Assembly: GCA_017545225.1 (NCBI GenBank) | Contig: JAFWPR010000004.1 | Coordinates: 6,115 to 70,114 of the forward strand | Length of the DNA: 64,000 bases | Direction: 5' to 3' | From: Clostridia bacterium | GTDB lineage: Bacteria; Bacillota; Clostridia; Oscillospirales; CAG-272 | Shown: in pieces, positions 288 to 15,438 of the stretch | Layout of the letters: the number at the start of each line of letters is the position of its first letter | How positions within the stretch are numbered: the stretch's first letter is position 1 | Notes under the pieces: model-generated | What the model was told of the DNA's origin: nothing | The model's input: only the letters and a program-made list of their open reading frames with translations | Databases searched by the model: none | Translations under genes and position numbers: made by a program

Positions 288-2519
288 TTATTTGACCTCG
301 AGATTCTCGATCTCAGCGTACCAACCCCAGAACGGAGTCATATCCTTCGGAACGGACTCGATAACGATGCGCTCCGTGGAGAAGGTGGTGCATTCCTTGC
401 GCTGATAGAGCGGCAGTTCGCAGCCCCAGTCAAGGATGATTTCCATAGCTTCTTTGTAAACGGACTTACGGTACTCGGTGTCGGCGCTGCTGCGACCGTC
501 TTTGATGAGCTTGTCGAGATCAGCGTCGTCTACCTGGTAGTGGTTGGAGTTCGTGCCGTTGCCGTGAGCGTTGGCACTGGAGTAGACCTGAGTCATATCC
601 GGGTCAACGGAAGCCTGCCAAGCGGCAGCCCACATCATAGCGGTGTTGCCGTTGAGGGAGTTGGACCAAACGGACGTTACGACGTCGTTGACCTGAAGCG
701 TGATGCCGATGGACTCGAGAGCGTTAGCGGTATTGACAGCAACACCGTAAGCGGGGTGGTCCTGCTCGCCCTGGCCGGGGATCATGATCTCATAAGTGGT
801 CTCAACGTCGGTGAACTTGCCGGAAGCTTCGTCAAAGGTGAAGCCTGCAGCCTTGAAGTATCCGATAGCTGCGTCAAGAGCAGCTTCGTACTTCTCTTCG
901 TCGGTCATGCCGTCGGTGTAGATCGGGTTGCCGTCTACGTCGGTGGAGTAAGCGATCCTGTAGCCCTCGTCAGCCGGCTGAGGAGCCGCCCAGGAGGTGT
1001 TGGAGATCGGGTACTGGATGACAGCGGCTCTCTCGCCGTAGTAGGAGTTGATGACGGAGTCGCGGTAAACCGAGAACAAAGTCATGAAGCCTTTACGGAG
1101 AGCCTTGGAAGCGTCGGACGCGGGATCATTGCCGACTTTGACGAGGTCAGCGTTGATGCCGAGGTAACCGTATCCGCGGTAGTCGACGAGATAGGTGGTG
1201 ACGACGTCACCGACGATTTCGTCGTTACCGTTGGCGTCCTTGATCGCCTTCACGGTGTCTTCGTTGATGGAGGGAGAAGCAGCGTCGTACGTGCCGGCTT
1301 CGATACCGGGAACGTAGTCGGAGTCAACGCCTTCCTTGAACTGAAGGGTAGCGATGTGAGGAGTGCCGAGAGCGTAGGTGGTGTTGGCGTTCAGAGTAAC
1401 GACGCCGTTGTTGTAGCCGCCGTAGGTGTAAGCGCCGCATCCGAGAGGATCGGCCGTCTTAGCCTTGATGGGGCTGAGATCGCCCTTGGTGAAACCGAAC
1501 TTGTTGTTCTCGTAATCGTATTCGTCAGCGTTGCCGTAGTGGTGAAGCGGAGCGATCACGAAGCTCATGTCGTAGATAGCGACGGCGTCAAACTCGGTCA
1601 TGTGGACGGTCATGGTGTAGTCACCGGTCTTCTTGATACCGGCGATGTTGGCAGCGGATTCCGCAAAGGAGACGGAGGTCTGCGTGTACTCGTCGATACC
1701 CGGGAAGAGGTCCTCAACGGAGGAACCGGCGTTCTCGGTGTCGATCATGCCGACCACGTCGTTGGCGTATGCTTCTTCAAGAGCCTTGGCGAAGGACTCG
1801 ATGGTGTTCTCTTCAGGCTCAAAGCCCCAAGCGCCTGCAGCGCCCTGAATGTCGCCGTCCTCGGCATAGCCGTTCTCGACGCAGTAAGCGACGATCTCTT
1901 CGGCAAGGCCCTTGGTAGCGGCGTCATACTTTTCCCAGAATGCGGTCTGCTGTTCTTCGGTCACGTTCGTGAAGTCGGTGTTGTCTCTGCCGAGACCGTA
2001 GATGTAGTTGAGCAGAGAATCCATACCGCTTCTGTACTCGTCCATACCTTCGATCGGAAGAGCATAGAGAGTGGAAGAACCGTCATACATCGGGTCGCAC
2101 ATTACGTAGATACCGAAAATGACGTCGTCGATGGTGGCCTTTACGCCGTCGGAGAAGACGACGTCGTCACGCATCTTGAGGTTGTAGTCGACGGTACCGT
2201 CATCGTTCTGGACGACTTCGACGTCACCGAAACCGTGGTAGGTGTAGTCGGTTCCGTTGTACGAACGGGTCTCGCCCTTGATGCCGTTTTCGACTACTGC
2301 GCCGCCGCGGTCAGACGCAAGAAGGTAACCCTGAGTAAGGTTTACGATGTCAGCGTCGTATGCGGTGGTGTAGAAGAAGGGAGTAAACTTCTGGTCAAAC
2401 GTGGAAGTCGCGTAGACCAGAGTTCCTTCGGGCGTTACTGCCGGCTTGCCGCAAGCAGCGAGCGCGACGGTCATGATCACGACCAGAAGGAGCGCGAGCA
2501 GTCTTGTGTGCTTGCTCAT
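288..2519 (-). CDS. ABC transporter substrate-binding lipoprotein (family 5, peptide/nickel type)
   Basis: 743-aa ORF with a lipoprotein signal peptide and lipobox (MSKHTRLLALLLVVIMTVALAACGK). Size and composition are typical of Opp/Dpp-like SBPs. An AGGAGG RBS lies just upstream. Confidence 0.75.
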   Translation of the reverse strand: MSKHTRLLALLLVVIMTVALAACGKPAVTPEGTLVYATSTFDQKFTPFFYTTAYDADIVNLTQGYLLASDRGGAVVENGIKGETRSYNGTDYTYHGFGDVEVVQNDDGTVDYNLKMRDDVVFSDGVKATIDDVIFGIYVMCDPMYDGSSTLYALPIEGMDEYRSGMDSLLNYIYGLGRDNTDFTNVTEEQQTAFWEKYDAATKGLAEEIVAYCVENGYAEDGDIQGAAGAWGFEPEENTIESFAKALEEAYANDVVGMIDTENAGSSVEDLFPGIDEYTQTSVSFAESAANIAGIKKTGDYTMTVHMTEFDAVAIYDMSFVIAPLHHYGNADEYDYENNKFGFTKGDLSPIKAKTADPLGCGAYTYGGYNNGVVTLNANTTYALGTPHIATLQFKEGVDSDYVPGIEAGTYDAASPSINEDTVKAIKDANGNDEIVGDVVTTYLVDYRGYGYLGINADLVKVGNDPASDASKALRKGFMTLFSVYRDSVINSYYGERAAVIQYPISNTSWAAPQPADEGYRIAYSTDVDGNPIYTDGMTDEEKYEAALDAAIGYFKAAGFTFDEASGKFTDVETTYEIMIPGQGEQDHPAYGVAVNTANALESIGITLQVNDVVTSVWSNSLNGNTAMMWAAAWQASVDPDMTQVYSSANAHGNGTNSNHYQVDDADLDKLIKDGRSSADTEYRKSVYKEAMEIILDWGCELPLYQRKECTTFSTERIVIESVPKDMTPFWGWYAEIENLEVK

Positions 2520-2600
2520 TTTTTCTTTTTCCTCCTAAGAAAAAATTTGTATTTTTATTAATTTGCGGTTAGGCAAATAATAAACGGAATAAATGAGGGA

Positions 2601-3179
2601 TCAGTCTTTCTCCTCTTCGGCGTCTTCGGCTTTCGCGGTCTTCGGGATCTCGGCGACGGCGAACGCGTCTTTCATCGAAAAGGCGACGGCTGCGACGCCG
2701 AACAGCAAGACCGCGGACGCTGCGGGAACGGCGTCGATCGCGGAGAATCGGGAACGCTCGACGAACGTGCCGACGATGAATCCGACGGCGGAACCGGCTG
2801 AGAACACCATGAGTATCACAGCCCCGCGTCTGACGCGGTTCGTGAACTTGTCGGCAGTCCTGCGTTTGAAAGGAGATTTCTCGCGGTACAGGGATACTGC
2901 GCAGTCGATGAGAAGATATATCGGTATCGCCGTAAAGATGAACGGCAGAGAGAAATATGCGAGGTGCATCGCTGCCGTGCGGGGGATAAGCGCCGCGACG
3001 TATGCGATCACCGCAACGGCGGCTGCCGCGGCGAGAATCGTTCTTTTTTTGAAGACGGCGGCTTCGTCGCCGGTGAATCTGAAGTACCCTCCCGCGTATC
3101 GGGCGGTGGATTTTATCCTGCCCTTGCCGTCGACTTCTCTTTCGATCTTATAGTCGTTGATGTATTTCTTTCGCGACAT
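2601..3179 (-). CDS. hypothetical membrane protein
   Basis: The track ORF 2601..3230 starts on TTG. An internal ATG at 3179 (MSRKKYINDYKIE...) follows a GGAAGG RBS and is preferred. Several hydrophobic helices are present and I recognise no family. Confidence 0.55.
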   Translation of the reverse strand: MSRKKYINDYKIEREVDGKGRIKSTARYAGGYFRFTGDEAAVFKKRTILAAAAAVAVIAYVAALIPRTAAMHLAYFSLPFIFTAIPIYLLIDCAVSLYREKSPFKRRTADKFTNRVRRGAVILMVFSAGSAVGFIVGTFVERSRFSAIDAVPAASAVLLFGVAAVAFSMKDAFAVAEIPKTAKAEDAEEEKD

Positions 3180-3256
3180 AGGCGTGGCCTTCCGTCCCTC
3201 CGGGGAAGTGAAATCATATAACGGCAGCAAACGATTTGCAAAATGGAGTATTCTTT

Positions 3257-3285
3257 ATTTTAGCGTAAAATTTACGATTTGTCAA
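3257..3285 (-). promoter_or_regulatory. sigma-70-like promoter (TTGACA-17-TAAAAT) for the 2601..3179 gene
   Basis: Minus strand reads TTGACAaatcgtaaattttacgcTAAAAT, a consensus -35 with a 17-nt spacer. Confidence 0.6.
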
Positions 3286-3406
3286 TATTTTTTCCAACGT
3301 TTTGTAAAAGGCTGAGCCTCCCGGACGCCCCGAAAAACCGCGCGGTGGAAAAACCCGTGCCCCGCCGCGTCGGACGCAAGATCGGAAAACGCAATACCTA
3401 ATTCGG

Positions 3407-3435
3407 ATTTTACCATAATTTGTTGCGACTTGCAA
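3407..3435 (-). promoter_or_regulatory. second upstream promoter (TTGCAA-17-TAAAAT)
   Basis: Minus strand reads TTGCAAgtcgcaacaaattatggTAAAAT. It sits about 120 nt upstream of the 3257..3285 promoter. Confidence 0.5.
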
Positions 3436-3513
3436 TAATATCGGCTAAAAAACTTGCCGTATATATATAATTGAAGGAGCGCGTCGGGCCTCATGAGGCT
3501 GTACGCGGACGAA

Positions 3514-3545
3514 ACGAAAAACGCCCCCGATCCGGGGAGCGTTTG
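3514..3545 (-). terminator. intrinsic terminator after the GNAT gene
   Basis: Minus strand reads AAACGCTCCCCGGATCGGGGGCGTTTTTCGTTT, a GC stem followed by a T-run, immediately after the stop at 3560. Confidence 0.7.
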
Positions 3546-3559
3546 CAGAGCCACGAGGA

Positions 3560-4072
3560 TCATTCGGACGAGGCGAGGTATTCTTCCCGCGTCAGCTCAA
3601 GGTGAATGATGCCGTTCTCCTCGCCTGTCTCGCGGAAGCCGATCGCTTTGTGTACGTGATACGCCGCGTCCCGCGCCGTTTCGAAATCGTTGTTGAGACG
3701 GGGGATCCCGTCGATCCTGAAGGCTCGGTCCGCGAGCAGACGGAGCCCCTCTTTTGCGTATCCTTTTCCGCGTTCCGGAGCGTAGATCACGATGCCCATA
3801 TCGTAACGCTTTCCGTCGCGGCTTTTGTGATAATTCACGTCGCCGACGAAAGCGCCGTCCGATACGCGCTGAAGAAAGGCGTAAAAGCGCTCGGGCTCGC
3901 GGCCGATCCAGCCCGAGAGCAGATCTTCCCATTCGGATTCCGGGTCCGGGATGCACCCGTCCGGCGGGAACCACGGCGCGTTGTACGCCATGGTGGCGGG
4001 ATCGGTCATCATTTTCACGTAAAAACGGCCGTCCTCGGGACGGGGGATATAAAGGCGAAGGGATGGGGTCAT
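3560..4072 (-). CDS. GNAT family N-acetyltransferase (RimJ/RimL-like)
   Basis: Acetyl-CoA binding signature ERGKGYAKEGLRLLADRAF. The ATG at 4072 (MTPSLRLYIPRPEDG...) follows a GAAGG RBS, so the track start at 4150 is probably too long. Confidence 0.8.
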   Translation of the reverse strand: MTPSLRLYIPRPEDGRFYVKMMTDPATMAYNAPWFPPDGCIPDPESEWEDLLSGWIGREPERFYAFLQRVSDGAFVGDVNYHKSRDGKRYDMGIVIYAPERGKGYAKEGLRLLADRAFRIDGIPRLNNDFETARDAAYHVHKAIGFRETGEENGIIHLELTREEYLASSE

Positions 4073-4145
4073 GAGGGCCTTCGGGATCAGCGAGAATGAC
4101 TGATTTAAATATAGCAGATTATAAAGGGGATGGCAAGGGGGAGGA

Positions 4146-4372
4146 TTCAAATCTCTCCCGCCAAAGGAAAAGCACGCCGATGGCGTGCTTTAGTTATCTG
4201 ATGAAGTCAGCGTAAACAGTTCGAGAAGGTGCACCCCCTTTGCGGTGCCCTCCGCTTGCTGACGCAAGCGGGATAAAATCCGTCGTGAAATGGGACCCGC
4301 ACCCATTTCACTTTGCTTCGCAAAGACCGCCGGATTTTACGGCGGCCGTCCGTTCGTTTTTCGATATTTGAG
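4146..4372 (-). ncRNA. candidate structured RNA, unit A (unclassified; GNAT-proximal copy)
   Basis: Copy of a ~227-bp tandem unit with three-way junction stems at 4275-4282/4331-4338, 4311-4316/4320-4325 and 4286-4294/4302-4310, plus a hairpin at 4252-4259/4264-4271. The conserved 18-mer is at 4194-4211 and a terminator hairpin at 4171-4189. Confidence 0.4.
4163..4190 (-). terminator. intrinsic terminator closing unit A
   Basis: Minus strand reads AAGCACGCCATCGGCGTGCTTTTCCTTTGG. Confidence 0.6.
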
Positions 4373-4600
4373 TTCAAATCTCTCCCGCCAAAGGAAAAGG
4401 ACGCAAATGCGTCCTTATATTATCTGATGAAGTCAGCAGTAGTTGTTAGAAAAGATACACCCCGGGTTGCGGTGCCCTCTGCTTGCTGACGCAAGCAGGA
4501 TAAAGTTCTCTTGAAATGGGTCCCGACCCATTTCACCCGGCTTTGCCGGGACGAGAACTTTACGGCGGTTCGGCGTTCGACTCTCTGCATTTGGAGCGGC
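4373..4600 (-). ncRNA. candidate structured RNA, unit B (unclassified; tRNA-proximal copy)
   Basis: Second copy with stems at 4502-4510/4553-4561, 4536-4540/4546-4550 and 4512-4520/4527-4535, plus a hairpin at 4479-4486/4491-4498. The conserved 18-mer is at 4420-4437 and a terminator hairpin at 4397-4416. Stems differ in sequence from unit A but still pair. Confidence 0.4.
4390..4416 (-). terminator. intrinsic terminator closing unit B
   Basis: Minus strand reads AAGGACGCATTTGCGTCCTTTTCCTTTGG. Confidence 0.6.
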
Positions 4601-4714
4601 GCCGCGATTTCGACCGCGGCAGCGTTATCGCCTCCCCTCGGTCCGCCCCCGGCGGCGGGGAGGCGATAACACCCGCGCCGGTTAACCGGCGCTCGAGATT
4701 TTTCTTCTCCGTAG

Positions 4715-4742
4715 AAAAGAGGACGCGAATGCGTCCTCTTTT
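4715..4742 (-). terminator. intrinsic terminator directly after tRNA-Ser
   Basis: Minus strand reads AAAAGAGGACGCATTCGCGTCCTCTTTTCTAC and starts 3 nt after the tRNA 3' end. Confidence 0.65.
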
Positions 4743-4744
4743 CA

Positions 4745-4833
4745 CGGAGAAGGAGAGATTTGAACTCTCGCGCCGGTTACCCGACCTACACCCTTAGCAG
4801 GGGCGCCTCTTCGGCCAACTTGAGTACTTCTCC
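4745..4833 (-). tRNA. tRNA-Ser (anticodon GCT)
   Basis: Minus strand reads GGAGAAGTACTCAAGTTGGCCGAAGAGGCGCCCCTGCTAAGGGTGTAGGTCGGGTAACCGGCGCGAGAGTTCAAATCTCTCCTTCTCCG. It has a 7-bp acceptor stem, anticodon loop CTGCTAA, a long variable arm and T-loop TTCAAAT. No CCA is encoded. Confidence 0.9.
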
Positions 4834-4864
4834 GAATTCACAAAATTATTCTTTTGTACACGAT

Positions 4865-4893
4865 AGTATACACCACGGGGACGCGTTTGTCAA
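4865..4893 (-). promoter_or_regulatory. promoter for tRNA-Ser (TTGACA-17-TATACT)
   Basis: Minus strand reads TTGACAaacgcgtccccgtggtgTATACT, about 30 nt upstream of the tRNA 5' end. Confidence 0.65.
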
Positions 4894-4963
4894 GGAAAAA
4901 AACGAAGGAAGCCGCAAAGCGTCCGAAACGGCAGAAAAAAAGGCGCAAAAACGGCTTTTTCTA

Positions 4964-4992
4964 TTGACATTTTCTCACCTTTAAGATACAAT
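4964..4992 (+). promoter_or_regulatory. promoter for the oxidoreductase gene (TTGACA-17-TACAAT)
   Basis: Plus strand reads TTGACAttttctcacctttaagaTACAAT. Confidence 0.6.
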
Positions 4993-5095
4993 GCTATCGG
5001 TAACATTCTTGCTCTTTCGGCAATTGTCTTAATATCTGGCCGAAAGCGCTTTTCCGCCGCCTGCGCGGCGGAAAACGCGGGAAAGGTAGGTTCAA

Positions 5096-6139
5096 ATGAA
5101 AAAGAAAGCGGCCGTAATAGGCTACGGAGGAATGGGCGGCTGGCACGTCGACCACATCCTCAAAAGCGACGTCGTGACTCTCGCCGGAATATACGACATC
5201 AAAGAAGAAAGACGCGCGCTCGCGGAGTCACGCGGTATCAGGGCGTACTCGTCCCGGGAAGAGCTCCTCGCGGATCCCGAGATCGAGCTCGTCACCGTCG
5301 CCACCCCGAACGACGTTCATGAAGAGATAGTGATCGCCTCCCTTGAGGCGGGTAAAAATACTCTTTCCGAAAAACCCGTAACTCTCTCCCTTGAGAGCCT
5401 TGAGAGGATGATCGCCGCCTCGAAAAAGGCAGGCCGCATCTTCTCCGTCCACCAGAACAGACGCTTCGACGTCGACTACCTCGCAATGAAAAAGATCCAC
5501 GACAGCGGCGAGATCGGCGAGATAATCGACCTCGAGTCCCGTATCCACGGCAGCCGCGGCATCCCCTCCGACTGGAGAAGTCAGAAGGAATACGGCGGCG
5601 GAATGCTCTACGACTGGGGCATCCACCTCATCGACCAGGCGCTCATGGTCCTCGGATTCGACGTCGAATCCGTCCGCTGCACCTGCGACCACATCACCAA
5701 CGACGAAGTCGACGACGGCTTCAAACTCTATATCGACCTCAAGTCGGGCAAAAAAGCGTATATCGAAGTCGAGACGTACAACTTTATCGCCATGCCTCGC
5801 TTCTATATGAGAGGGCGCGGAGGCACCGCGATGATCACCGACTGGCGCGAAAAGGCTCATATTGCGAAATGCAAGGCGTGGAACGAGTCCGACGTTCTCC
5901 CCGTCGAGACGGCGGCGGGCATCACCAAGACGATGGCGCCCCGCGACTCCATCACGATGGACGAGTACGACATCGAAAGACCCGTGTCCGACGTTCACGA
6001 CTATTACCGCAACCTCGTCCGCGCCATCGACGGGCTCGAGGAACAGTTCGTCACTCACGATCAGATGAGGACCGATCTGAAGGTTATCCTCAAAGCGTTC
6101 GAGTCCGACGCCAAGGGCGGCGACAGGGTATATTTCTGA
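5096..6139 (+). CDS. Gfo/Idh/MocA family oxidoreductase
   Basis: N-terminal Rossmann motif AAVIGYGGMGGWH and the EKP motif (LSEKPVTL) typical of this family. 347 aa. Confidence 0.8.
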   Translation: MKKKAAVIGYGGMGGWHVDHILKSDVVTLAGIYDIKEERRALAESRGIRAYSSREELLADPEIELVTVATPNDVHEEIVIASLEAGKNTLSEKPVTLSLESLERMIAASKKAGRIFSVHQNRRFDVDYLAMKKIHDSGEIGEIIDLESRIHGSRGIPSDWRSQKEYGGGMLYDWGIHLIDQALMVLGFDVESVRCTCDHITNDEVDDGFKLYIDLKSGKKAYIEVETYNFIAMPRFYMRGRGGTAMITDWREKAHIAKCKAWNESDVLPVETAAGITKTMAPRDSITMDEYDIERPVSDVHDYYRNLVRAIDGLEEQFVTHDQMRTDLKVILKAFESDAKGGDRVYF

Positions 6140-6149
6140 GGGCGCCGCG

Positions 6150-6965
6150 ATGTTGAAGAAGACGAAGCTCTGGGATAACGGGACCCCGTACTACGACCCC
6201 GCGAAAGGGCAGGACGAGCCGTCGCTCGTCCACTACACCGACCTCGGCGGGAATGCTCGCCCCGACCGCGAAAAGACGGGCTGCGTCATCGTGTTTCCGG
6301 GCGGCGGATACGGCTCCCTGACGGATTACGAGGGCGAACCGATCTCCCGTATGTTCAACAGTTTCGGGATCAGATCCTTCGTTCTCAACTACCGCATTAC
6401 GCCTTATCATTATCCCGCGATCCTTATGGATGCGCAGCGCGCGGTACGCTGGGTCAGATACCACGCCGACGAGCTGATGATCGACCCCGACAAGATCGCC
6501 GTTCTCGGTTTCTCCGCGGGCGGTCACCTCGCGTCGTGCGCGTCGACCGTTTACGACGGAGGACTCTCTGACGGGGACGAGATCGACCGTGTTTCCTGCC
6601 GTCCCGACGCGGGCATCCTCTGCTACGCCGTCATTTCGATGTTCGAGCCGTGGACGCACGACGGAACGAGAGACGTCATGATGGGCGACCGTCCCGACAG
6701 GGAAGAGCTGACCCGACGTCTCACCGGATACCTGAACGTGACGGAGGACACGCCTCCGATCTTCATGTTCCACACGACGGAAGACAGCGCGGTCCCGCAG
6801 GAGAATTCCCTTCTCATGGCGCAGGCGCTCGCCGAAAAGAAGATCCCGTACGAGCTTCACATGTTCATGGACGGAGATCACGGTCTCGGTCTCGCTCTTG
6901 GCAGACCCGGCCTTGAAAAGTGGGGAGAACTCGCTTCCATCTGGCTCAAAAAACTCGGATTCTGA
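6150..6965 (+). CDS. alpha/beta hydrolase (esterase/lipase type)
   Basis: Oxyanion-hole region VFPGGGY, nucleophile elbow GFSAGGH and a C-terminal DGDHG. 271 aa. Confidence 0.75.
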   Translation: MLKKTKLWDNGTPYYDPAKGQDEPSLVHYTDLGGNARPDREKTGCVIVFPGGGYGSLTDYEGEPISRMFNSFGIRSFVLNYRITPYHYPAILMDAQRAVRWVRYHADELMIDPDKIAVLGFSAGGHLASCASTVYDGGLSDGDEIDRVSCRPDAGILCYAVISMFEPWTHDGTRDVMMGDRPDREELTRRLTGYLNVTEDTPPIFMFHTTEDSAVPQENSLLMAQALAEKKIPYELHMFMDGDHGLGLALGRPGLEKWGELASIWLKKLGF

Positions 6966-7017
6966 AAGAAATAACGCGGCGCGGATCTTCATCCGCGCCG
7001 TAATTATAGGTGACGAT

Positions 7018-7527
7018 ATGGATGAAAAGATCAAGCCGTGGGGCGACGAAAGAGTCGAAGGACTGCTGTCTGCGCTCCGCGAGAGGAAACTGACCGTCGG
7101 GACGGCGGAGAGCTGTACGGCGGGTATGATATCTGCGCGTATCGCCGATATTCCGGGCTCGTCCGACGTTCTGCTCGGCGGGATCGTTTCTTATTCGAAC
7201 GGAATAAAGATGAAACTGCTCGGCGTGAGCGAAAAAACGCTCCGCGAACACGGGGCGGTGTCCGAGGAGTGCGCCCGCGAGATGGCGGACGGCGCGCGGG
7301 ATGCGCTCGGGTGCGATATAGCGGTCTCCGTAACCGGGATCGCGGGACCGGGCGGCGGCACGCCCGACAAGCCGGTCGGCACCGTCTGTTTCGGGATCTC
7401 GACGGCGGACGGGGCGCGAACGAAAACGGAGCGTTTCGGCGAAGCCGGAGGCAGAAACGCCGTCCGCACGCTGACCGTTGCGGCCGCGCTCGGGATGATA
7501 GAAGACGAAATAAAAAACCGTGGTTGA
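7018..7527 (+). CDS. pncC: CinA C-terminal domain / nicotinamide-nucleotide amidohydrolase PncC-like
   Basis: Internal ATG at 7018 (MDEKIKPWG...). Contains the conserved TVGTAESCTAGMISARI and SVTGIAGPGGGT motifs of the CinA/PncC domain. Confidence 0.8.
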   Translation: MDEKIKPWGDERVEGLLSALRERKLTVGTAESCTAGMISARIADIPGSSDVLLGGIVSYSNGIKMKLLGVSEKTLREHGAVSEECAREMADGARDALGCDIAVSVTGIAGPGGGTPDKPVGTVCFGISTADGARTKTERFGEAGGRNAVRTLTVAAALGMIEDEIKNRG

Positions 7528-7539
7528 TCCACGGTTTTC

Positions 7540-8841
7540 TTATTGCGGTATTTTTTTCGGTTCCGCTTCGACCTGCGCCGCGTCCTCCGTCCCGTCCGCT
7601 TCTCTTTTTGCGGCGGCGAGCATCAGCTTGATGCGGTTCTGCTGGTTTACGACGGACGCCCCGGTATCGTAGTCGATCGCGATTATGTTGATCGACCCGT
7701 TTTTCTTTTTGATCGGTTTCATCATTCCCTTGCCGCAGATGTGGTTCGGCAGACATCCGAACGGCTGAGTGCAGACGACGTTCGTGGCGCCCGACTCGTA
7801 AAGCTCGATCATCTCCGCGGTCAAGAGCCACCCCTCGCCCATCTTGACGCCGTGGCTTATGTATCCCTCGGAGAGGGAGACGGTGCGGTCGAACGGAGTG
7901 TACGGACGGAACGCGCCGTTCTCTTTTATTATCTCAATGACGTCGCGCTGCTTTTTCAAAAGGAATTTGTATGCCAAGCGGTTAAGCCGCCAGCGGAAGG
8001 GACCTCGCCCGTAGAACTCGTGGTCGACGATCCCGTTGTAAACGCAGTACATACAGAAATCGAGCAGTCCCGGAACGACGACCTCCGCCCCCTCGGATAC
8101 GAGGAACGCCTCGAGGTCGTTGTTGCCGAGAGGCGAATACTTTACGAAGATCTCTCCGACGACGCCGACCTTGACCTTCTCGGCCTTCGTCTTCGGGATC
8201 GTGGCGAAATCGCGGACGATCTCGCGGTAGTTCTCCTTGACTTTGCGGTACTTGATCCTGTTGTTCGCCATCTCGTCGGTCAGGCGGAGAGTCCACTCCT
8301 CGGCCTTGCGCTCCGCCGTGCCTTTTTCGTTCTCGTACGGCTTCGTCTGGTTGACGAGCGACATGAGAAGATCGCCGTACGTGACCGCGTAGAGCATCCT
8401 GTGGAGCATCGCGAGCGAGAGCTTGAAGCCGGGGTGACGCTCGATCCCCGCGAGGGAGAACGAGATCACGGGAACGTAACCGTACCCCGCGCGCTCGAGC
8501 GCCTTGCGGAGCAGGGAGATATAGTTCGACGCGCGGCATCCTCCGCCCGTCTGGAAGAGCATCAGGGCGACCTTGTGCGGGTCGTATTTCCCGCTTTCGA
8601 GCGCGTCGATGAACTGCCCGATGACGAGAATCGCCGGGTAGCACGTGTCGTTGTGGACGTATTTCAGCCCCGTTTCGCCGATCTTCGGTCCGGACGTCGT
8701 GAGCACCTGCGCCCTTACCCCGTAGTTGTTCATGACCCGCGCGATGAGCTTGAAATGGATGGGAAGCATGTTCGGAATGAAGACGGTGTAGTCTTTTTTC
8801 ATGTCTTCCGTATATCTGATATATTCTTTTTTCGCCTTCAC
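7540..8841 (-). CDS. acyl-CoA dehydratase activase-related protein (2-hydroxyacyl-CoA dehydratase-like fold)
   Basis: 433 aa with motifs NDTCYPA, QTGGGCRASNY and TQPFGCLPNH, typical of the partner proteins encoded next to BcrAD/BadFG-type activases. Confidence 0.6.
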   Translation of the reverse strand: MKAKKEYIRYTEDMKKDYTVFIPNMLPIHFKLIARVMNNYGVRAQVLTTSGPKIGETGLKYVHNDTCYPAILVIGQFIDALESGKYDPHKVALMLFQTGGGCRASNYISLLRKALERAGYGYVPVISFSLAGIERHPGFKLSLAMLHRMLYAVTYGDLLMSLVNQTKPYENEKGTAERKAEEWTLRLTDEMANNRIKYRKVKENYREIVRDFATIPKTKAEKVKVGVVGEIFVKYSPLGNNDLEAFLVSEGAEVVVPGLLDFCMYCVYNGIVDHEFYGRGPFRWRLNRLAYKFLLKKQRDVIEIIKENGAFRPYTPFDRTVSLSEGYISHGVKMGEGWLLTAEMIELYESGATNVVCTQPFGCLPNHICGKGMMKPIKKKNGSINIIAIDYDTGASVVNQQNRIKLMLAAAKREADGTEDAAQVEAEPKKIPQ

Positions 8842-8874
8842 GGCTTCCCCTCCTTTCGTATCGGCTGCTTAATA

Positions 8875-11800
8875 TTAACCTCGCGCGGCTTCTTTTTCCT
8901 CGATCGCGGCGAGGAGCGAGCGCAGTCTGATCTTTACTGCGCCGAGATTCGTTATCTCGTCGATCTTTATCTGCGTGCAGTATTTGCCGCCGTCCTCGAG
9001 TATCCGTCTGACCTCGTCCGTCGTGATCGCGTCGACTCCGCATCCGAACGAGACGAGCTGAACGAGCTCCGTATCGCCGTGTTCCGCGGCGTACCGCGCG
9101 GCGCGGTACAGTCTTCCGTGGTACGTCCACTGGTTGAGGACTCTTACCGACGGCTGTTCGGCGAGATGCGCGACGCTGTCCTCGCTTACGACGACGAAGC
9201 CGAGCGAGAGCGCGAGGCGGTCGATGCCGTGGCAGATCTCCTCGTCGACGTGGTACGGGCGTCCCGCAAGGATCATGATCCGCGTGTTGTTTTCTCTGGC
9301 GTACGCCAGCGCGGCTTCGCCCTCGCGGCGCACCGCCGCGTAGTATTTTTCCTGCGCGGAGAACCCCGCTCTGACGGCGCGGCGCACCGCCGATCTCGTA
9401 AACCCGGCGTCCTTGCCGCCGAGGCACGCGAAGAGTTCTTTTTCGAGCTGGGCTTTTTTGTTGATGTTAAGATACGGGAAGAAGAATCTGCTCTTTCCCG
9501 TGTCCTCGAGATTGCCCGCGAGCAGTTCGGAATAGTACGCCACGACGGGGCAGTTGAAGTGGTTTTCGGTCACTTTTTCGTCCACGTTGTAGGTGATGCA
9601 CGGATAGAAGATCAGATCGACGCCCCGCTCGACGAGTTCCTCAACGTGACCGTGCATGATCTTCGCGGGATAGCACGCGGTGTCGGACGGGATCGTGAAC
9701 TGCCCTTTTTCGTACGTCGCCCTCGTCGACATCCCGGAGACGGAAACCTCGTACCCGAGCGACGAGAAGATCCCGTGCCAGAGCGGGAGAAGCTCGTACA
9801 TTCCGAGCGAAAGCGGGATGCCGACCGTTCCCCTTGTCCCGGGTTTTGAGGGAAGCGAGGTCAGGTATTTTCTCTTGAAATTGTAGAGATTGTGAAGACC
9901 CGCGTCGCCGGGGTCTCGCCCGAGACCGCGCTCGCAGCGGTTGCCCGAGATGAACCTTCCGCCTCCGGAGAACGTGTTGACGGTGAGATGGCAGTTGTTC
10001 GTACAGCCCCGGCAGATCGTGCTCGTCGATTTGTGGGTGAAGTTTTCGAGCGCCTCCCACGGGATCAGACCCGACGGGCCTTTGTGGTTCATCGCTTTGA
10101 GCGCCGCGCCGTACGCGCCCATGAGGCCCGCGACGGCGGGACGGACGACGTGCCGTCCGAGTTCGCGCTCGAGAGCGCGCAGGACCGCGTCGTTGAGCAG
10201 CGTTCCGCCCTGAACGACGACGTGCTCACCGAGATCGTCGGGGCCGGTCGCCCTTATTACTTTATAAAGCGCGTTCTTGACTACGCTGATCGAGAGACCC
10301 GCCGAGATGTCGTCGGCTCCCGCGCCGTCCTTCTGCGCCTGCTTGACCGAAGAGTTCATGAAGACGGTGCATCTGCTCCCGAGGTTGACCGGGGCGCGGG
10401 CGAAAAGTCCCGCTTTCGCGAACTCCTCCGCCGTGTATCCCATCGAACGGGCGAACGTCTCGATGAACGAGCCGCACCCGGAGGAGCACGCCTCGTTGAG
10501 CATGATGCTGTCGATTGCGCCGTTTCTGATGCGGAAGCACTTTATATCCTGTCCCCCGATATCGAGAATGAAGTCGACGTCGGGCATGAATCTTTTGGCC
10601 GCCGTGTAGTGGGCAGCAGTTTCGACGACGCCGATGTCGACGCCGAACGCGTTTTTGATAAGGTCCTCGCCGTATCCCGTGACGGCGCTCCCAGCGATCT
10701 CGATCGAGTCTCCGGCGAGAGAATAGATACGTCCGAGCTGGTCTTTGATCACCTCGACGGGATTCCCTCTGTTGGAGGAATAGTACGAATACAGGATCTT
10801 TCCGCTCTCGGTGAGCAGAACGAGTTTCGTCGTGGTAGAGCCGCAGTCGATACCGAGATACGCGCGGCCCGAGTATGAGTCGGGATCCTCCGTCTCGACG
10901 GTCGCGCGGGCATGGCGCTCCGCGAATTCTTTATAATCTTCCTCCGACTCGAAAAGCGGGGGCAGAGTCGCCTCGCCGGACGACTTCACGATGCAGTTTT
11001 CGATCCTCTCGCAAAGATCCGATAGCGTAGTTTCGAGTCCGTTGTCCCGCGCGAAAAGAGACGCGCCGAGGGAGACGGAATGGCGGGCGTACGGCGGACA
11101 GACCGCGTCGTCTTCCGACAGACCGAGCGTCTCTCTGAAACGCTTGCGGAGTCCCTCGCAGAAAAAGAGCGGGCCGCCGAAGAAAAGGACTTTTCCGCGT
11201 ATTCTGCGCCCCTGCGCGAGGCCCGCGATCGTCTGGTTGACGACCGCCTGATAGATGCTCGCCGCGACGTCCTCTTTTCTTGCCCCCTGGTTGAGGAGCG
11301 GCTGAATATCGGTCTTGGCGAAAACGCCGCACCGCGACGCTATCGGATATATCTTCCCGCTGTCGAGCGAGAGGGCGTCGAGTTCTCCGACGGTCACGTC
11401 GAGGAGCGTCGCCATCTGGTCGATGAACGCGCCGGTCCCTCCGGCGCAGGTGCCGTTCATTCTCTCGTCGACGCTTCCTCCGAAGAATACGATCTTCGCG
11501 TCTTCGCCGCCGAGTTCGATGACCGCCTCGGTGTCTGGGTGATACGCTCTCACGAGTTCGGTCGTCGCGGCGACCTCCTGAATGAAGGGAATACCGGCGG
11601 CATCGGCGACGCCGAGACCGGCGGAGCCCGAGACCGCCGCACGGACGGTCACGTCGCCGAGTTCCGAGAGCGCCTCGCGAAGCAGTTCCGCCGTCTTCTG
11701 TCTCACGGCGGAGAGGTGGCGTTCGTACCGCTCGAATACTATCTTCCCGTCCCTGACTGCGACGATCTTCGCCGTCGTCGAGCCGACGTCGACGCCGACC

Positions 11801-11898
11801 GTCACGTGTGCGCAGGAAAAAGACCCCGTCCCGCCGTTTCCGGCGGAGCGGAGCGCACCGTCATTCGGTTCGTAGGATATCTTTTTCTTTTCTTCCAT
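8875..11898 (-). CDS. CoA-substrate-specific enzyme activase-like protein (two BadF/BadG/BcrA/BcrD ATPase domains plus a C-terminal dehydratase-like domain)
   Basis: 1007 aa with two actin-fold ATPase repeats (VGVDVGSTTAKIV near the N-terminus, LGIDCGSTTTKLV mid-protein) and a C-terminal region containing SDTACYPAKIMHGHV. Confidence 0.7.
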   Translation of the reverse strand: MEEKKKISYEPNDGALRSAGNGGTGSFSCAHVTVGVDVGSTTAKIVAVRDGKIVFERYERHLSAVRQKTAELLREALSELGDVTVRAAVSGSAGLGVADAAGIPFIQEVAATTELVRAYHPDTEAVIELGGEDAKIVFFGGSVDERMNGTCAGGTGAFIDQMATLLDVTVGELDALSLDSGKIYPIASRCGVFAKTDIQPLLNQGARKEDVAASIYQAVVNQTIAGLAQGRRIRGKVLFFGGPLFFCEGLRKRFRETLGLSEDDAVCPPYARHSVSLGASLFARDNGLETTLSDLCERIENCIVKSSGEATLPPLFESEEDYKEFAERHARATVETEDPDSYSGRAYLGIDCGSTTTKLVLLTESGKILYSYYSSNRGNPVEVIKDQLGRIYSLAGDSIEIAGSAVTGYGEDLIKNAFGVDIGVVETAAHYTAAKRFMPDVDFILDIGGQDIKCFRIRNGAIDSIMLNEACSSGCGSFIETFARSMGYTAEEFAKAGLFARAPVNLGSRCTVFMNSSVKQAQKDGAGADDISAGLSISVVKNALYKVIRATGPDDLGEHVVVQGGTLLNDAVLRALERELGRHVVRPAVAGLMGAYGAALKAMNHKGPSGLIPWEALENFTHKSTSTICRGCTNNCHLTVNTFSGGGRFISGNRCERGLGRDPGDAGLHNLYNFKRKYLTSLPSKPGTRGTVGIPLSLGMYELLPLWHGIFSSLGYEVSVSGMSTRATYEKGQFTIPSDTACYPAKIMHGHVEELVERGVDLIFYPCITYNVDEKVTENHFNCPVVAYYSELLAGNLEDTGKSRFFFPYLNINKKAQLEKELFACLGGKDAGFTRSAVRRAVRAGFSAQEKYYAAVRREGEAALAYARENNTRIMILAGRPYHVDEEICHGIDRLALSLGFVVVSEDSVAHLAEQPSVRVLNQWTYHGRLYRAARYAAEHGDTELVQLVSFGCGVDAITTDEVRRILEDGGKYCTQIKIDEITNLGAVKIRLRSLLAAIEEKEAARG

Positions 11899-15307: not shown

Positions 15308-15412
15308 TTACAGCGGGATGCGGCAGATGCACCGCAACGGTCGGCCGACCGTTTTCGTCTCCCGGACAACTCCCCGTCCCGGGAGCACTTGACGCGCAAA
15401 TGCCTACTCTGT
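15308..15412 (-). ncRNA. THF (tetrahydrofolate) riboswitch
   Basis: Minus strand reads AGAGTAGGCATTTGCGCGTCAAGTGCTCCCGGGACGGGGAGTTGTCCGGGAGACGAAAACGG...GCGGTGCATCTGCCGCATCCCGCTGT. This matches the conserved THF-I blocks I recall from the Eubacterium siraeum folT riboswitch (AGAGUAG, GCGUUAAGUG, GGGAUG, ACGAA, GCGGUG, GCAUCCGCU). Confidence 0.8.
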
Positions 15413-15438
15413 CATCGCCGTCTTCCGACGGCGTATAT

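Follow-up and report, generated by a model that had tools for sequence, protein, structure and literature searches.

The spacer between the tRNA-Ser(GCU) gene and a gene encoding a GNAT acetyltransferase in a Clostridia bacterium of the Oscillospirales (contig JAFWPR010000004.1) contains two head-to-tail, hairpin-rich units of about 227 nt, A and B, which were analyzed within a 64,000-nt stretch of DNA (hereafter the window). Read along the minus strand, the locus begins with the tRNA-Ser promoter (4865-4893, TTGACA-17-TATACT), followed by the tRNA gene (anticodon GCU, 4744-4834, detected by ARAGORN and by the Rfam tRNA model with 50.2 bits) and its terminator-like hairpin T1, which has a 13-bp stem (4714-4743; inverted repeats I7 and I9, consensus fold). 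T1 is directly followed by plus-strand sequence in which the 3' half of tRNA-Ser is repeated in inverted and degenerate form, with the variable arm, a decayed T-arm and the acceptor strand TTCTCCG (4676-4712; repeats I4, I9, and D6). Next comes a long, GC-rich imperfect hairpin that represents the proximal trailer (4601-4692, core 4624-4670, minus strand; I6, comparison and consensus fold). Unit B (4373-4600) and unit A (4146-4372) follow on the minus strand, and beyond them, outside the repeat and on the same strand, are the predicted GNAT promoter (4108-4136) and the GNAT gene (3560-4072).

The two units repeat with a period of 226-227 nt and are identical in 84% of the columns of their pairwise alignment, in agreement with the first-pass annotation of this DNA, which had described a tandem pair of structured-RNA-like units. 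Each is composed of a module M5, a three-way junction (P1-P3) plus the hairpin P4 (4467-4569 in unit B, 4240-4346 in unit A), and a module M3, which contains the hairpin P5, an 18-mer (4420-4437 in B, 4194-4211 in A), a terminator-like hairpin (T2, 4397-4416, in B; T3, 4169-4191, in A) and an inverted copy of the tRNA-Ser T-arm (4370-4385 in B, 4141-4158 in A). All the stems quoted in the annotation were found at its coordinates, including the junction-closing stems of unit B (inverted repeat I21, 4501-4510/4553-4562) and unit A (I12, 4274-4285/4328-4339), the arm TGAAATGGG/CCCATTTCA (I13 and I18) and the hairpin that reads CCGCTTGC in one copy vs CTGCTTGC in the other (D2). Each of the two units is much more stably folded than its shuffled controls (z about -5), the plus and minus strands being equal in this respect, and the minimum-free-energy fold of unit A favors a GC hairpin (GGCCGCCG/CGGCGGUC) over the proposed junction-closing stem. 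As annotated, each unit terminates on the minus strand in an intrinsic-terminator-like hairpin; T2 was called by a terminator scan and T3 has a 10-bp stem followed by UUUUCCUUU. What the annotation had overlooked is the sequence after the terminator, UUUUCCUUUGGCGGGAGAGAUUUGAA, which is the reverse complement of the tRNA-Ser(GCU) T-arm with 16/16 matches in unit B (I3) and 16/18 in unit A (I2). Protein coding of the units was rejected, as the open reading frames (ORFs) that run through A and B are in different frames owing to a 1-nt indel in the P3 loop.

The GNAT gene encodes a RimJ/RimL-type enzyme (Acetyltransf_3, Pfam PF13302, E = 7.9e-15), and its promoter is predicted to be strong and of the sigma-70 type, with an extended TG (TTGCCA-17-TATATT). 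Because this promoter lies downstream of unit A, the units would be placed outside the GNAT 5' untranslated region (UTR), which, judged from the predicted promoter position, would be only about 30 nt long. The same promoter precedes a GNAT homolog of 88% identity in a related locus (L050), and TTGAGT-17-TATAAT is found at the same relative position before a homolog of 78% identity (L052), both of them in the absence of the units. No sigma-70-like promoter was predicted in or between the units on either strand (other sigma factors are outside the coverage of the tool), and the sole promoter predicted upstream of them on the minus strand is that of tRNA-Ser, with T1 in between. A sigma-54 promoter in the TGGCGGG...TTTGA box was considered and rejected, as other strains read TTCGGGG there.

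Stem covariation was assessed in an alignment of seven unit copies from several strains (alignment A2), using the helices proposed in the first-pass annotation. In this alignment 92.9% of the cells pair and, in keeping with the claim that diverged stems still pair, 8 of the 50 pairs are changed on both sides and remain paired, a result matched by none of 500 shuffles and compared with 0 or 1 in slid controls. P1-P4 are 100% Watson-Crick in every copy, with zero G-U pairs. The hairpins are kept paired through double changes and their maintenance is real. Several of the stem differences consist of multi-base blocks on both arms, e.g., CTTTGC/GCAAAG vs CCCGGC/GCCGGG. The annotation had also stated that the unpaired blocks stay constant while the stems diverge; within the window the 18-mer and the TTGCGGTGCCCTC block do occur exactly twice each (the 18-mer well above chance), but in other strains GCTGTCTTCACCAG replaces GCTGACTTCATCAG and GGGCACC has been lost entirely from one copy (L035). 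In addition, about 37% of the unpaired columns differ between A and B in the three-way-junction/P4 part vs about 20% of the paired ones (counted by eye), so that the loops of M5 appear to be no better conserved than its stems. The suggested alternative pairing of GCUGAC in the 18-mer with GUCAGC found no support, as it does not covary among the strain variants (GUCAGC shows no matching change where GCTGTCTTCACCAG is present), and neither does a long-range closing stem, CCGCC/GGCGG; both this stem and the 18-mer/GUCAGC pseudoknot were rejected for this reason.

The absence of G-U pairs in P1-P4, the multi-base differences, the strand-symmetric folding and the variable loops argue against a strand-specific functional RNA, and the pattern fits DNA palindromes kept perfect by template switching and patchwise recombination. 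Replication template switching is a documented source of multi-base compensatory changes (PMC8794818), and the hairpins described in that work resemble the units in their perfect stems, their multi-base compensatory differences and the lack of G-U intermediates in P1-P4, whereas the study dealt with RNA genes and not with tandem repeats.

The spacer varies among strains. The exact GNAT protein is present on nine contigs from rumen samples, whose spacers were aligned. The window, L029 and L030 have two units; L032 and L035 also have two, the first of which is a variant, and the L035 copy is without GGGCACC (the P5 block) and carries GCTGTCTTCACCAG. L031, L033, and L036 contain only M3, preceded by an intact hairpin (GGCGCC-GCTCCAA-GGCGCC...GCGATTTCG), and in L034 a B-type M3 is fused straight to the GNAT promoter. 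The content thus ranges from 0.5 to 2 units across strains with an identical GNAT protein, which is variation of the kind seen in variable number tandem repeats (VNTRs). Because the alleles are mosaics of one another, this comparison indicates that exchange between copies has been frequent. In two of the half-unit strains (L031 and L033) the 3' strand of the tRNA-Ser T-stem reads CTCGC and not CTCTC, which leaves an A-G mismatch in the T-stem.

Related loci also differ at the same spot, and it is exactly at the repeat that synteny with the window is always lost. In a sister species (L002, 89% nucleotide identity in the right flank) the spacer has a lone M3, after which come an internally duplicated M5 and a truncated M3, and other genes are found in place of the GNAT gene. 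In L038 and L039, whose GFO protein is 91% identical, the tRNA is followed by a near-perfect palindrome made up of the tRNA 3' end, the terminator and an inverted T-arm. Downstream of tRNA-Ser, L038 (3945-4640) carries at least five tandem copies of a GC-rich hairpin unit of about 110 nt that has GGTGCCGCGGTCGAAAT...ATTTCGGGCACCGCAAACGGGTGG in common with the window's trailer and M3; this array contains two alternating central inserts and a run of N at a scaffold gap, with three array rows and further copies around the gap. L039, a metagenome-assembled genome with the same GFO protein as L038, shows only two copies, and its array may be collapsed. A further locus with a 91%-identical GFO protein (L044, 1-160) has an unrelated array after the tRNA-Ser terminator, with AGTTATATT four times, separated by short GC hairpins. 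In L042 an AT-rich island with a KilA-N domain gene starts directly after tRNA-Ser (1-1960); the island seems to have supplied the tRNA-Ser 3' end, as suggested because CCA is encoded there and not in the window. AT-rich DNA also abuts the terminator and inverted T-arm upstream of GNAT in L050. Finally, L052 has the layout tRNA-Ser(UGA), tRNA-Ser(GCU), a 265-nt spacer and the GNAT gene, which is likely ancestral; in its spacer the T-arm is copied in inverted orientation, and the tRNA-Ser(GCU) 3' end is repeated directly with 15/16 matches (AAATCCCCGCTTTTCC), at a distance of 173 nt from the tRNA on its downstream side and immediately ahead of the GNAT promoter (within 3735-4000). By its sequence, this direct repeat looks like the scar of an old island between tRNA and GNAT.

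The tRNA-Ser gene is the source of the T-arm sequence that was copied inverted into every unit. Inverted T-arm sites are located at 4141-4158, 4370-4385, and 4676-4712 in the window, at about 4690-4712 in L038, at 346-372 in L050 and at 3789-3808 in L052, that is, in several species either after the tRNA terminator or before the GNAT promoter, and L035 and L032 have a longer, 20-nt version (GAGAGATTTGAACTCTCGC). The copy tracks the T-stem of the species concerned (GAGAG/CTCTC in the window clade, GGG/CCC in L052), and this match is the most unusual residue of the locus. It could be due to a palindrome that evolves in concert, or the copy could function as an anti-T-arm box. With a terminator hairpin and an inverted T-arm copy at the end of every unit, the units appear to be assembled from duplicated tRNA-flank material. 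The leader of M5 (GAGAGTCGAACGCCGAACCGCCGTAAAG) resembles a stretch of the proximal trailer (GCGGTCGAAATCGCGGCGCCGCTCCAAA) that itself resembles inverted tRNA sequence (read by eye), and the L038 unit sequence has 13/16 matches to the inverted tRNA 3' part. The T1 stem can be extended to about 22 bp (4714-4770) through pairing of the tRNA acceptor 3' strand (CUUCUCCG) with the downstream CGGAGAAG, an inverted acceptor copy; this extended stem would compete with the acceptor stem in the tRNA-Ser primary transcript. In the trailer hairpin, two neighboring base pairs are compensated between the window and L038 (AT to GC in either arm).

The annotation had been unable to assign the units to a riboswitch or sRNA class. 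No Rfam family was found in them at the gathering threshold and, at E <= 10 in 3900-5100, nothing inside them exceeds 15 bits; in the whole window only the tetrahydrofolate (THF) riboswitch and tRNA models pass the gathering threshold. The former corresponds to a full-length THF aptamer at 15309-15413 on the minus strand (85.2 bits, E = 2.5e-18). Genomes and metagenomes were searched with exact motif patterns. Scanning 185,579 species, each represented by one genome, for two motifs gave L002 as the single match, the 26 matches in JGI metagenomes were all due to chance and mostly inside coding sequence, and the scans of IMG/VR returned chance matches only (a phage coding region and phage terminator hairpins). 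BLAST against phage and plasmid collections produced no match, and a covariance model of the three-way-junction/P4 module detected no new copy in 193 kb of related loci. No further unit copy was found in the 64-kb window or in 22 related loci, and the representative genome L002 has them at a single locus. In these searches the units were found at this locus alone, within one species and its sister, and not as an RNA family with homologs in several genera. The annotation had named a purely local duplication as evidence against its proposal, and this is essentially what was observed, one locus in one narrow species cluster; covariation is nonetheless present among the copies and is restricted to these paralogs and alleles.

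We favor, with moderate confidence, the interpretation that the feature arose by tandem duplication of hairpin-rich sequence from the tRNA-Ser flank, varies among strains and sits at a hotspot of recombination and integration, serving at most as stacked terminators before the GNAT promoter; the feature is real but ordinary in kind. The duplication would have occurred inside the ancestral spacer between tRNA-Ser(GCU) and GNAT, which would constitute the recombination and integration hotspot of the clade. An intrinsic-terminator hairpin plus the inverted T-arm copy would act as boundary element (R), and M5 (three-way junction and P4) and M3 (the GGGCACCGCAA hairpin and the 18-mer) would be hairpin-rich filler, the leader of M5 and the start of M3 being apparently diverged copies of the proximal trailer, to judge from the sequence and the 13/16 matches in L038. 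Copy number and composition may change when copies of R and M3 recombine unequally by homology or undergo gene conversion. The stems probably stay perfect mainly through processes at the DNA level, i.e., intrastrand template switching, in which one arm is copied onto the other, and patchwise exchange between diverged copies, to which weak selection for terminator hairpins may contribute. As to function, at most three co-oriented terminators might insulate the GNAT promoter from read-through from the strong tRNA-Ser promoter, and the units are probably neither a ligand-sensing nor a gene-specific regulatory RNA.

The units resemble VNTRs and palindromic intergenic repeats such as repetitive extragenic palindromes and bacterial interspersed mosaic elements (REP/BIME type), which are likewise arranged head-to-tail, form hairpins, lie just downstream of a gene and vary among strains in number and composition. 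They differ from the REP/BIME type in their length (227 nt), their composite make-up, their restriction to a single locus instead of dispersal, and the lack of a detectable RAYT/Y1 transposase gene in the window.

Several observations weigh against this interpretation. Eight compensated pairs with none broken in P1-P4 are equally expected from selection on RNA structure, and template switching at this locus is inferred from the pattern. G-U pairs in P5 and in the trailer hairpin form on the minus strand only, and all three terminator-like hairpins (T1-T3) have their better U-tract on the minus strand, i.e., in the direction of the tRNA, as the annotation had proposed for those of the units. 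The proximal trailer (4591-4690) is 100% identical to that of L002 and 87% identical to that of L038, in comparison with about 88-93% per 100-nt bin and 78%, respectively, for the coding flanks; with its identity above that of the coding flanks, the trailer at least seems to be under constraint or to have been exchanged recently. Lastly, exact motif patterns may have missed diverged relatives in genomes and metagenomes.

It is possible, with clearly lower probability, that the units form part of a clade-specific structured minus-strand RNA, made either by transcription that reads through T1, with the units as a 3' trailer (external transcribed spacer) of tRNA-Ser, or from promoters that went unrecognized, and released at T2/T3. 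Such an RNA could provide small RNAs (sRNAs) or sponges, or anti-T-arm boxes that modulate the folding or processing of the tRNA-Ser precursor. The compensated stems, the minus-strand-only G-U pairs in P5 and the trailer hairpin, the terminators oriented with the tRNA, a trailer more conserved than the coding flanks and an inverted T-arm copy that fits each species' own T-stem are all consistent with this possibility. It is opposed by the lack of a predicted promoter and the strength of the 13-bp hairpin T1, by the half, mosaic and damaged units in conspecific strains, by the lack of covariation in the 18-mer/GUCAGC and CCGCC/GGCGG pairings, by unpaired parts that are not preferentially conserved, by folding energies without strand preference and by the confinement of the units to one locus. 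More specifically, a functional modular trailer RNA of tRNA-Ser(GCU), in which each unit carries an anti-T-arm box and a copy-number-variable array is coupled to the way the precursor folds or is processed, or to the titration of a factor that binds tRNA, is in our opinion improbable. The 3' external transcribed spacer (3'ETS) of leuZ in Escherichia coli, which acts as an sRNA sponge, is short and precedes the terminator. The units are similar to it as non-coding sequence directly downstream of a tRNA that would be made only by co-transcription with it, and differ in being placed beyond a strong terminator, T1.

The proposal of the annotation that the units are two independent sRNAs is not sustained, considering that no promoter was predicted for them and that conspecific strains contain half, rearranged or damaged units. 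Tandem paralogous sRNA genes are known (LhrC1-5, PrrF1/PrrF2, OmrA/OmrB), each with its own promoter and stable within the species; the units are like them as adjacent homologs that end in an intrinsic terminator, and unlike them in lacking a predicted promoter and in being truncated or mosaic in some strains.

Another explanation, rather unlikely in our view, is that repeated integration and excision at tRNA-Ser left the units behind as scars. They would be either short remnants of integrative elements or small cassettes that are not autonomous, each with boundaries formed by an attachment-site-like repeat derived from terminator and T-arm. Foreign DNA in the tRNA-Ser 3' flank of relatives (the KilA-N island of L042 and the AT-rich DNA of L050) points in this direction, as does L052, where the tRNA 3' end recurs in direct orientation (15/16) next to the GNAT promoter, a direct repeat of this kind being the classic mark of an island in a tRNA gene (PMC4383910). 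However, the T-arm copies of the window are inverted and not direct, a product that is not generated by tyrosine-integrase insertion in a tRNA gene, and only inverted copies were found in the window, L002, L038, and L050. A Pfam scan that covered the ORFs in 288-4072 and 5096-11898 detected no integrase or transposase domain. Moreover, the leader of M5 and the start of M3 seem to stem from the trailer nearby and not from foreign DNA (a reading by sequence to which the L038 matches lend partial support), and there is no second copy elsewhere in the window or related loci. The tRNA-fragment repeats cataloged by Islander (PMC4383910) are likewise located at the 3' flank of a tRNA gene, with islands in relatives, and tRNA 3' copies bound the units as well, while those of the window are inverted, are without the acceptor strand, enclose units of only 227 nt and are not accompanied by an integrase domain in the ORFs scanned.

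A folded single-stranded DNA element, such as a single-strand replication origin, a transfer origin or integron-attC-like sites, would account for perfect palindromes conserved in structure over sequence and for a cassette-like array with strain-variable content, but it is very improbable, as the neighboring ORFs scanned encode no replication, relaxase or integron-integrase domain, the unit boundary (GTTCAAA vs GTTRRRY) has no attC-type R''/R' core and the plasmid and phage collections contain no match. The weakest explanation, a tandem riboswitch or cis-regulatory leader of GNAT as envisaged in the annotation from units that are co-oriented with and upstream of the gene, each with a terminator hairpin, is contradicted and retains almost no probability in view of a promoter located downstream of unit A (the same in L050, equivalently placed in L052), an estimated 5' UTR of about 30 nt, GNAT homologs at 78-88% identity without units, a unit number that varies while the GNAT protein is identical, fragments of M5 and M3 in L002 without GNAT, so that the association with GNAT is not conserved, and the lack of an Rfam match.

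Other candidates were also considered and rejected. T-box, glycine riboswitch, hammerhead (CUGAUGA) and C/D-box or k-turn RNAs gave no Rfam match where models exist; transfer-messenger RNA (tmRNA), including its permuted form, was not detected by ARAGORN or Rfam. The same holds in Rfam, where models exist, for group II intron domain V, IscB/TnpB guide RNA and IS110 bridge RNA, and no reverse transcriptase, TnpB or recombinase domain was found by Pfam in the neighboring ORFs scanned. A miniature inverted-repeat transposable element or other dispersed repeat was discarded since no dispersed copies exist in the 64-kb window, the related loci or the representative genome L002; a REP/RAYT link, since no Y1 transposase gene was detected in the window; and an integron attC array, since GTTCAAA at the unit boundary is unlike the GTTRRRY core and the neighboring ORFs scanned contain no integrase domain. 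A toxin-antitoxin RNA array of type III and a toxin system based on GNAT were set aside as well; the GNAT protein here is of the RimJ/RimL type (PF13302), a widely conserved single gene without a DUF1778-type partner.

Among the neighboring genes, those with Pfam matches encode an Opp-type solute-binding protein, GNAT, a GFO/IDH/MocA oxidoreductase, an esterase, CinA and a CoA-enzyme activase, and four further ORFs have no Pfam match. A 93-aa ORF without a Pfam match (3282-3563, minus strand) has its start at the GNAT stop codon, the overlap being 4 nt, and is called as a gene in related contigs; it is followed by a 192-aa ORF with no significant Pfam domain.

Compensatory-looking stems between two adjacent paralogs are insufficient to claim a new class of structured RNA, because the same signature is produced by palindromic tandem repeats at a hotspot beside a tRNA gene, and this case represents a caution for RNA discovery. 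In this rumen lineage the locus provides a convenient marker for strain typing, and its repeats account for the breaks of assemblies at this position. Should the tRNA-Ser trailer RNA turn out to be true, it would constitute a tRNA-linked array complementary to its own tRNA and, with it, a new kind of tRNA-trailer function.

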